Positions 62,201 through 64,000 of a stretch of DNA of 64,000 nt are shown piece by piece (position 1 is the first letter of the stretch; the number at the start of each line of letters is the position of its first letter). Position numbers: made by a program. Where the stretch lies: NCBI RefSeq assembly GCF_056712565.1, contig NZ_CM160072.1; one strand, 5' to 3'.

Positions 62201-64000
62201 GGAGGACAGCACTAATGCAATTCCTGAATATGTTCTTCTTTGATATCTACCCGTACATAGCCGGGGCGGTCTTCCTGATTGGTAGCTGGCTGCGTTATGA
62301 CTACGGGCAGTACACATGGCGTGCGGCGTCCAGCCAGATGCTGGATCGCAAAGGGATGAACCTCGCGTCGAACCTGTTCCATATCGGTATTCTGGGGATT
62401 TTTGTCGGTCACTTCTTCGGTATGCTGACGCCGCACTGGATGTATGAAGCCTGGCTGCCGATTGAAGTGAAACAGAAAATGGCGATGTTTGCTGGTGGTG
62501 CCAGCGGCGTACTGTGTCTGATTGGTGGCGTGCTGTTGCTGAAGCGTCGTCTGTTCAGCCCACGCGTGCGTGCAACCACTACCGGAGCGGATATCCTGAT
62601 CCTGTCGCTGCTCGTTATCCAGTGCGCGCTGGGCTTGCTGACCATTCCGTTCTCAGCCCAGCATATGGACGGTAGCGAGATGATGAAACTGGTTGGCTGG
62701 GCGCAGTCGGTAGTGACCTTCCACGGTGGTGCTTCTCAACACCTTGATGGTGTGGCGTTTATCTTCCGTCTGCACCTGGTGTTGGGGATGACGTTATTCC
62801 TGCTGTTCCCGTTCTCGCGTCTGGTGCACATCTGGAGCGTCCCGGTGGAGTATCTGACGCGTAAGTATCAGCTGGTGCGCGCTCGTCACTAAGCGAATTT
62901 TAGTTCACATAGACCCTGCTTCGGCGCTGAGGGATCCCCATAAATCAGCGATAATAAACCAACACCATATTCTGGTAGGTTCTGGTGAGGTGATTAAGAA
63001 TGGTGCTTAGCACCGTTCGTTTTAAAATTAGCGGGGAGTGTCGTAAGACATTCTCCGCTAACGTCAGATACGAGATTACCCGCCGCGTTTTAATGCTGTT
63101 GGCCTGATATCTAAGATGTAACCCTTGATTTTCAGCGTGATAGCCAATAAGCCACAGCACTATTGTGCTCAGTGTTGCCAGCAGGCTCAGTACCAGCATT
63201 CTTCCTGCCGAACAGCTGTAACTGGCTCGCAGACCGAACCCAAAACGCTCACTTTTTTCATCCCTGAAGTTTTGCTCAATCTGCATTCGGCGGCTGTATA
63301 ACTTCATGATTTCTCGCGGTTTAAAGTCATCTGTGCTGCTGAATATTAACCATGGTTCTTTTGCCGCCGACCTGGCATCTTTTATCTGTGATGGTCTGGC
63401 TATACCACAACGCGAACGTTTATTTCTCCGGCCTTTCGGCTCTTTTTTGTGCAAATAAAAATGACCATCGCAACGGGCGTATTCCGCCCGGGAAAGCGTC
63501 CCCGGCCCCAGATATTCAGGTTTGTTACTGGCCTGTAATTCCTGACGCCTGAACCAGCATTCCCCTTTTCTCGCCAGATGCAGTTGTTTATTGCCTCGTA
63601 TCCGGCCAATAAAATCCCAGCCGAGTGATTTTATGTGCCGAAACCAGGCATTCTGGAACCCTGCATCCGTGACGATGATTACCCTTGCTTTTGGGTTTAC
63701 CGCTTCGGAAAGAGTATTAAGAAAGGCTTGCTGTATCTTTGCATTTTGCTGTTTTTCCGAAGGAACTATCCAACTCAGCAATGGAATCGAATGTCCATAG
63801 CAAATCAGGCTGGCGCGGAGTACGTGATACTCCTGAGAGGGGTATCCACTCCAGTCAACGGCGATGACACACAGTGACAGCTTGCTCGTCAGCATGGAAA
63901 TAATGTTTCTGAAAATCAGGGGGATGTCGTGATGAAGAGACTCATTACCGAGCAGACGATCAACACGTTTTATTTTATTTTTGACCTGAGCATTACCGGG

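Follow-up and report, generated by a model that had tools for sequence, protein, structure and literature searches.

An IS10-group insertion sequence of the ISSfl1/IS1330-like branch within the predicted narGHJI terminator of Escherichia coli

Directly downstream of narI, the last 1,074 bp of the DNA analysed here (64,000 nt of contig NZ_CM160072.1, RefSeq assembly GCF_056712565.1; hereafter the window) are best explained, with little room for doubt, as part of a structurally intact IS4-family insertion sequence (IS) of 1,312 bp that belongs to the IS10 group and, within it, to an ISSfl1/IS1330-like branch. The element lies inside the loop-proximal stem of the predicted intrinsic terminator of narGHJI, and its relatives insert almost exclusively into GC-rich hairpins of the form CCCGC-N4-GCGGG, typically terminators. 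It is an ordinary IS, already labelled in RefSeq, generically, as an IS4 family transposase. As annotation it is a minor matter, and the terminator-hairpin target rule of its branch is the only point of wider interest.

Organisation of the narI locus and the transposase gene

The window holds the following features of the locus, with coordinates counted from its first base.

62215–62892, plus strand: narI, the last gene of narGHJI, convergent with the transposase gene (ORF list; RefSeq annotation)
62911–62926, plus strand: part of the predicted narGHJI intrinsic terminator (5′ arm, loop, 3 nt of 3′ arm); the insertion cuts off the remaining 3′ arm and the T-tract
62917–62926, no strand: narI-side copy of the 10-bp target duplication, TGCTTCGGCG, identical to the empty site of K-12 and of B2 strain SCU-125
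62927–64000, minus strand: transposase-distal 1,074 bp of the 1,312-bp IS10-group IS (100% identity to UTI89 and many other B2 genomes)
62927–62948, no strand: terminal inverted repeat on the 3′ side of the transposase gene, CTGAGGGATCCCCATAAATCAG, which pairs with CTGAGGAATCCCCAGTAATGGGC and resembles the IS10 inside end
62933–62936, no strand: GATC (Dam methylation site) within this transposase-distal repeat, read from the sequence; the other repeat has GAATCC and no GATC
62945–64000, minus strand: transposase gene, codons 49–399 plus stop, no internal stop (translation; Pfam and NCBIfam matches; ORF 4053–5252 of the UTI89 locus, L001)
63254–63298, minus strand: Y283-R286-E290-K297 block, YSRRMQIEQNFRDEK, with the catalytic E290 codon at 63275–63277; invariant with respect to ISSfl1 and IS10
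63665–63667, minus strand: catalytic D160 codon (TDAGF), invariant in the alignment with the ISSfl1 and IS10 transposases
63854–63856, minus strand: catalytic D97 codon (VDWS), invariant in the same alignment

Read from its TGA stop at 62945–62947, the minus-strand frame contains 351 sense codons up to base 64000. An earlier note on this DNA had seen in it an IS4-family DDE transposase, homologous to that of IS10 and well diverged from it, and both points are borne out. The translated fragment matches Pfam DDE_Tnp_1 (PF01609; E 5.6e-17, 62.6 bits versus a cutoff of 23) and the transposase matches NCBIfam NF033591 (344 bits versus a cutoff of 152), while identity to the IS10 transposase is 36%, with the DDE and YREK residues invariant. 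The IS4 family is defined by a D(60–110)D(100–150)E spacing and a Y(2)R(3)E(6)K motif (PMC2266710). In the present protein D97, D160 and E290 are set apart by spacers of 63 and 130 residues, and Y283, R286, E290 and K297 form the motif. The overall layout is likewise that of the family, with one 399-aa ORF, short terminal inverted repeats of about 22 nt and a target duplication close to one helical turn in length. An exact-sequence cluster look-up with the 399-aa protein returned no entry in the collection.

The same note had reported a stop codon in frame, 26 codons ahead of the first Met, and suspected that the N-terminal part was frameshifted or otherwise disrupted. This stop is absent: all 35 codons between the first Met (63895) and base 64000 are sense (PGNAQVKNKIKRVDRLLGNESLHHDIPLIFRNIIS), and the ORF list starts at this ATG only because the frame extends past the window end. 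In UTI89 the frame continues to a 399-aa ORF, WP_001111620.1, which RefSeq records as an intact IS4 family transposase. That the locus holds an IS10-like pseudogene, its transposase broken at the N terminus by a stop or frameshift, is scarcely credible given a frame without stops from 62948 to 64000, the intact 399-aa ORF in genomes of identical sequence and an alignment with the ISSfl1 transposase that begins at residue 1.

Extent and ends of the element

The structurally intact IS can be followed past the window in other genomes, since the last 1,108 bases (62893–64000) are 100% identical to UTI89, S88, APEC O1, IHE3034, ATCC 11775 and many other E. coli. In UTI89 the full element, at 1360686–1361997 of NC_007946.1, occupies 4035–5346 of L001, or 1,312 bp. 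The 238 bp beyond the end of the window comprise transposase residues 1–48, a leader stem and the second inverted repeat, CTGAGGAATCCCCAGTAATGGGC (L001 5323–5346), whose outer end lies 238 bp past the window end, outside it as the earlier note had expected. The IS10-like terminal sequence that the note had put about 18 bp past the stop is CTGAGGGATCCCCATAAATCAG, its tip 18 nt beyond the stop and the repeat itself overlapping the stop.

The two terminal repeats are imperfect and about 22 bp long, and both begin with 5′-CTGAGG; ISSfl1 and other relatives have the same tips. Termini of 5′-NT rather than 5′-CA mark the IS10 subgroup (PMC2266710), and the element, with CT at both ends (CTGAGG), shares them. 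The inverted-repeat pairing was recovered as 27-nt arms, 81% complementary, each arm including three flanking bases. An extension of the repeats to GCGCTGAGG with a 4-bp duplication was considered and ruled out by these flanking bases, which vary among insertions (G 76–90%, C 83–90%, G 86–90%) and are present in the K-12 empty site as well.

The GATC in the transposase-distal end is kept in 10 of 11 distinct complete relatives, and the leader loop contains two further GATC sites. To our knowledge, a role for Dam is known for IS10 only; by analogy, methylation of the transposase-distal GATC by Dam may provide a further layer of control. A simple scan of the element found no sigma-70-like promoter.

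Insertion site

The empty site of K-12 and of the closely related B2 strain SCU-125 reads ...TAGACCCTGCTTCGGCGGGGTTTTTTTATGG. In K-12 a terminator scan predicts an intrinsic terminator here, AGACCCTGCTTCGGCGGGGTTT followed by a T-rich tail, and the empty-site hairpin folds at −14.8 kcal/mol (z −3.35). At the occupied junction after narI, scanning and folding found no hairpin with a U-tract. The position next to narI given in the earlier note stands, directly downstream, with the gap corrected from 35 to 34 nt (narI ends at 62892). Its author had not noticed that the insertion lies inside the narGHJI terminator hairpin.

The target-site duplication, which the note had proposed to seek beyond the window together with the second inverted repeat and a comparison of narI downstream regions among E. 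coli genomes, was found as a far copy, CGCTCCGGCG, identical to TGCTTCGGCG at 8 of 10 positions and followed by GGGT8 versus GGGGT7; the second repeat (CTGAGGAATCCCCAGTAATGGGC in UTI89) and the empty sites of K-12 and SCU-125 answer the other two points. The far junction carries three substitutions in 21 nt, and the next ~130 nt match the B2 empty site almost perfectly. The same junctions recur in the ST95-type copies, in an ST1193 genome and in the MS 57-2 copy (98.6% identical, frameshifted). Identical diverged junctions in all three argue for one old insertion rather than several.

Distribution and mobility in E. coli

Joined to the narI flank, the element occurs in about 359 of 5,426 complete E. 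coli genomes (~6.6%), and most of the remaining complete genomes match the 34-nt spacer only. A search with the IS alone gave 358 records at 95% identity or more, versus 360 with the narI flank (5,426 E. coli genomes), and all close copies therefore sit at narI. Each genome with the element has just one copy, at narI in every case, so the element looks quiescent in E. coli. Where an active IS is recognised by near-identical copies at several sites or by new insertions, E. coli has one site only. A 100%-identical "plasmid" copy (pMS20655A) was examined as evidence of mobility and rejected: narHJI and purU surround the element there, and it is thus the chromosomal narI locus and not a separate insertion. 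Other strains have, between a prophage remnant and torI/dsdC, a relative that is ~85% identical and reduced by deletion to 1,113 bp.

The E. coli copy accordingly goes back to one old insertion that some B2 lineages have inherited, with no sign of recent movement. It may have gone further and become a fixed, immobile relic that no longer transposes in E. coli and persists by descent, with an ORF that is intact only for lack of time to decay; we take this to be quite possible, although it is not the reading we prefer. The occupation of one site by one copy per genome agrees with it, as do the diverged duplication (8 of 10, with one T-tract change) shared by ST95-type, ST1193 and MS 57-2 copies and a divergence among E. 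coli copies of up to ~2.5%, some of them frameshifted (for example MS 57-2) or shortened. However, in the window's version nothing is broken in the reading frame, the two inverted repeats, the leader stem or the DDE and YREK residues, ~336 records carry copies at least 99% identical (every inspected row being annotated as IS4 family transposase), and the close relatives are clearly mobile. Against the preferred reading count the restriction of E. coli copies of at least 95% identity to narI, the imperfect duplication, the decayed copies, and the absence of a sigma-70-like site in the simple scan and of an Rfam RNA-OUT match.

Relationship to ISSfl1, IS1330 and IS10

The preferred reading, a structurally intact IS10-group element, places it in a branch with ISSfl1 and IS1330. 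Its transposase is 88% identical, over 99% of the query, to a protein of Yersinia aleksiciae that UniRef names "Transposase for IS1330"; this likeness to IS1330 is judged by the protein of that name. IS1330 itself is a named element of Yersinia enterocolitica WA-314 (PMC3521999, PMC3079665). In tblastn searches of plasmid records and in alignment, amino-acid identity is 72% to the ISSfl1 transposase and 36–38% to that of IS10A / ISVsa5. The note had named as refuting an absence of IS4-family matches in ISfinder and of a matching inverted repeat on the far side; with named IS4-family relatives among plasmid records and proteins, and the second repeat in UTI89, neither point tells against its reading. 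An iso-form differs from the reference transposase by less than 2% of amino acids (PMC2266710). At 72% and 88% identity the element is an iso-form of neither ISSfl1 nor IS1330 (the latter by the protein bearing that name), and because no compared relative reaches the threshold, it is a distinct member of this known IS10-group branch.

ISSfl1, from the Shigella flexneri virulence plasmid, has terminal repeats nearly identical to those of the element and the same leader stem, with compensatory changes, and is likewise located in a small GC hairpin. It differs in its length of 1,301 bp, in the absence of a 12-nt TAATGGGCGGGT block beside the transposase-proximal end and, in the copy examined, in a 9-bp duplication, CCTGAAGGG.

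IS10 (IS10-right of Tn10; named ISVsa5 / IS10A by PGAP) resembles the element in having a single DDE transposase of ~400 aa in ~1.3 kb, termini that start with CTGA and contain ATCCCC (outside end CTGATGAATCCCCTAATG, compared with CTGAGGAATCCCCAGTAATG in the element), a GATC confined to the transposase-distal end, and an inverted repeat that encloses the start codon at the position of RNA-OUT in IS10. Unlike the 9-bp duplication of IS10, which is typical of the IS10 subgroup, that of the element's branch is 10 bp, and the IS10 target consensus is NGCTNAGCN whereas the branch has CCCGC-N4-GCGGG.

Three elements of other IS4-family subgroups, IS186 (GGGG-N6/7-CCCC), IS231A (GGG-N5-CCC) and IS4 (AAA-N20-TTT), likewise favour GC-rich targets with dyad symmetry and duplicate roughly one helical turn of DNA. 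Set beside these consensus sequences, the branch is similar in its palindromic, terminator-like targets; IS186, IS231A and IS4 have termini of 5′-CA, not 5′-CT, and another target consensus.

An IS10-like leader

In the leader, 95 bp separate the transposase-proximal tip from the ATG, and CAGGCATAGAG and CTCTATGCCTG form an 11-bp stem, the latter arm including the transposase start codon. Across 16 relatives 96% of the cells are paired, with compensatory changes in 5 of the 11 outer pairs, values reached by none of 500 shuffles. Folding energies are −26.1 kcal/mol (z −5.4) for the sense leader and −31.2 kcal/mol (z −5.5) for the antisense strand, on which UCUUUUUUU (U7) follows. This antisense stem-loop and U-tract, at about L001 5245–5316 on the plus strand and some 70 nt long, look like a small terminated antisense RNA.

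The same layout surrounds the ATG of IS10 (CACATCTTGT / ACAAGATGTG), where the Rfam RNA-OUT model scores 98.8 bits. With IS10 as positive control at that score, RNA-OUT (RF00240) gave no match at E values up to 1 in the element or in ISSfl1; the leaders of the element and of IS10 are therefore alike in architecture rather than in sequence. By analogy with IS10, the element would move by cut-and-paste transposition, and its leader would keep transposase expression low, the 11-bp stem sequestering the start codon in read-through transcripts and the other strand of the repeat giving rise to a putative antisense RNA, a stem-loop followed by a U-tract. For IS10 itself, antisense control and a block to translation of read-through transcripts by the start-codon repeat are established (see also PMC5006887).

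Target preference of the branch

A left-end motif scan of one genome per species yielded 87 loci, and a right-end motif scan of metagenomes added more. Several copies were present in Tenebrionibacter intestinalis, Limnobaculum eriocheiris and Escherichia sp. MOD1-EC7003, and multi-copy relatives in three species indicate that the family is active. The 111 distinct flanks (82 left, 29 right) share one consensus at both ends, an A-run followed by CCCGC-N4-GCG and then the IS. Counted outwards from the IS tip, the conserved positions are as follows.

Position −12: C, 72–82%
Position −11: C, 86–89%
Position −10: C, 79–83%
Position −3: G, 86–90%
Position −2: C, 83–90%
Position −1: G, 76–90%

CCCGC (at most one mismatch) together with GCG occurs in 49 of the 111 flanks, as opposed to 3 of 8,296 random positions in the same loci. 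The three bases on either side of N4 are fully complementary in 52 of the 111 flanks; shuffled partners gave a mean of 38 and a maximum of 49. This consensus is the stem of a GC-rich intrinsic terminator. Where both flanks of an insertion could be paired, an exact 10-bp duplication centred on the hairpin loop was found at 7 of 9 sites, as in AAAAAAAAACT-CGCTGATGCG-AGTTTTTTTT and AAAGGC-CGCGATTGCG-GCCTTT. Imperfect duplications match at 9 of 10 positions in two related copies at one Citrobacter-type site and at 8 of 10 at narI. The flanks of two complete copies (L007 and L050) are unrelated, and these copies look rearranged. As an alternative for the branch, a duplication of 9 bp to which the IS adds one base of its own was considered and rejected: the extra base varies, as in L008 (CAGCCTAGCT) and L195 (CACTTCAGCA), and in every case is the next base of the target.

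The flanks give no support for a preferred orientation with respect to the terminator T-tract: an A-run (at least 5 in 6 bases) is found in 33 of 79 flanks on the left and in 11 of 33 on the right. In the searchable literature on ISSfl1, IS1330 and the IS4 family we found no description of a terminator target preference or of terminator repair. We propose, tentatively and as something possible rather than probable, that the ISSfl1/IS1330-like branch seeks terminators, picking CCCGC-N4-GCGGG stems and duplicating the 10 bp centred on their loop, perhaps with repair of the terminator through an internal GGGCGGGT-A7 block. If terminator-like targets are indeed chosen, they would serve as intergenic safe havens. 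Borne out by experiment, the rule would account for the harmless location of such elements between genes and would be a well-defined addition to what is described for the IS4 family.

Predicted consequences for narGHJI

With its own terminator split by the insertion, narGHJI could give a nar transcript with another 3′ end and another stability. Transcription of narGHJI would continue through the transposase gene in antisense and reach first the antisense stem with its U7 (near L001 5316) and, directly beyond it, a composite hairpin in which ACCCGCC inside the IS may pair with the displaced GGCGGGU arm, followed by U8 (near L001 5368). This composite far-junction hairpin folds at −20.4 kcal/mol (z −3.5). 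The GGGCGGGT-A7 block, near the transposase-proximal end, is present throughout the branch, and ISSfl1-type elements are without it. By pairing with the displaced CCCGCC target arm it may rebuild a stem and U-tract, a repair that would restore termination at the far side of the element. The adaptive value of such repair is doubtful, because there is no orientation bias.

A predicted terminator at the far junction also bears on the idea that the host has domesticated the transposase, or the element as a regulatory module, and keeps it for a benefit to nar or tyrT expression: the composite hairpin and U8 could terminate nar read-through, and the ORF has stayed intact in an insertion of such age. 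We regard this as very unlikely. Only ~6.6% of complete E. coli genomes carry the element, its nearest B2 relatives do without it and have the terminator intact, decayed copies exist, and the ends and regulatory leader are those typical of a selfish IS. In practice, its presence or absence cleanly marks some B2 lineages of E. coli, ST95-type strains and ST1193 among them.

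Far junction of the narI insertion

The IS in the narGHJI terminator is followed, beyond its transposase-proximal end, by a diverged far junction, identified in sequence comparison with the empty site of a B2 strain:

L001 5347-5367 (UTI89 narI locus, just past the window end); also loci L217 and L218, 1598-1618: changed far junction

In the UTI89 locus, the 21 nt adjoining the IS carry three substitutions, such that the far copy of the duplication reads CGCTCCGGCG rather than TGCTTCGGCG, and GGGT8 stands in place of GGGGT7. The next ~130 nt match the B2 empty site near-perfectly. 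These far-junction changes are common to three lineages (ST95-type, ST1193 and MS 57-2).

A sequence record of 150 kb with a plasmid label (pMS20655A, NZ_CP082081.1) includes narHJI, the narI-site IS and purU, and therefore contains the chromosomal narI locus. This record may be a mis-assigned chromosomal fragment.

Neighbouring repeats

In the region further past the end of the window, one RtT unit is present in UTI89 (L001 5506-5885), where the tyrT and tyrV genes lie close together; the K-12 counterpart (L002 710-1623) has approximately three RtT repeats of 178 bp and the annotated ychS open reading frame. The difference between the two loci is rtT repeat copy-number variation adjoining the IS insertion. 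A separate segment of ~120 nt within the window (10664-10787) shares 83-87% identity with copies in Escherichia sp. MOD1-EC7003, of which five lie in a tandem-like arrangement in one locus (L089) and one in another (L078); it probably represents an intergenic repeat family.

A deleted relative and possible deletion remnants

A deleted and frameshifted relative, 1,113 bp long and ~85% identical, lies between a prophage remnant and torI/dsdC in E. coli M18 and 23CRST046 (L006 2501-3614 and L003). Its 10-bp duplication, CGCCGTAGCG, is perfect, and ~170 E. coli records hold this element. In Yersinia similis, a lone 27-nt left IS end, CTGAGGAATCCCCAGTAATGGGCGGGT, is located within terminator-like sequence (L013 6037-6063) with no transposase behind it, and looks like a deletion footprint, with the internal GGGCGGGT and GGCGGGT in the flank as the two partners. 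On the minus strand of metagenome contig Ga0268247_10000540 (L173, ~5386-5410), a right-end remnant of ~24 nt is bracketed by two copies of CGCTCAGGCG, consistent with almost complete deletion of an IS via the microhomology TCAGCGCT.

IS10-like subgroups in metagenomes

Further IS10-like subgroups in metagenome loci (L095-L214) have the tip CTGAGGGATCCCCA in common, and each has a palindromic flank of its own: CCCTCTCCC-N3-GGG, GGGG-N4-CCC or GGGGTCAGACC, in each case directly abutting the IS. MITE-sized, non-autonomous derivatives of 220-430 bp also occur (for example, L102, L121, L153, L170, L188, L204 and L213). In metagenome contig OLSC01002302.1 (L152), the GCCCGCCCATTA adjoining the left IS end is exactly complementary to TAATGGGCGGG(C) inside the IS, so that the two make up a perfect hairpin enclosing the IS tip.
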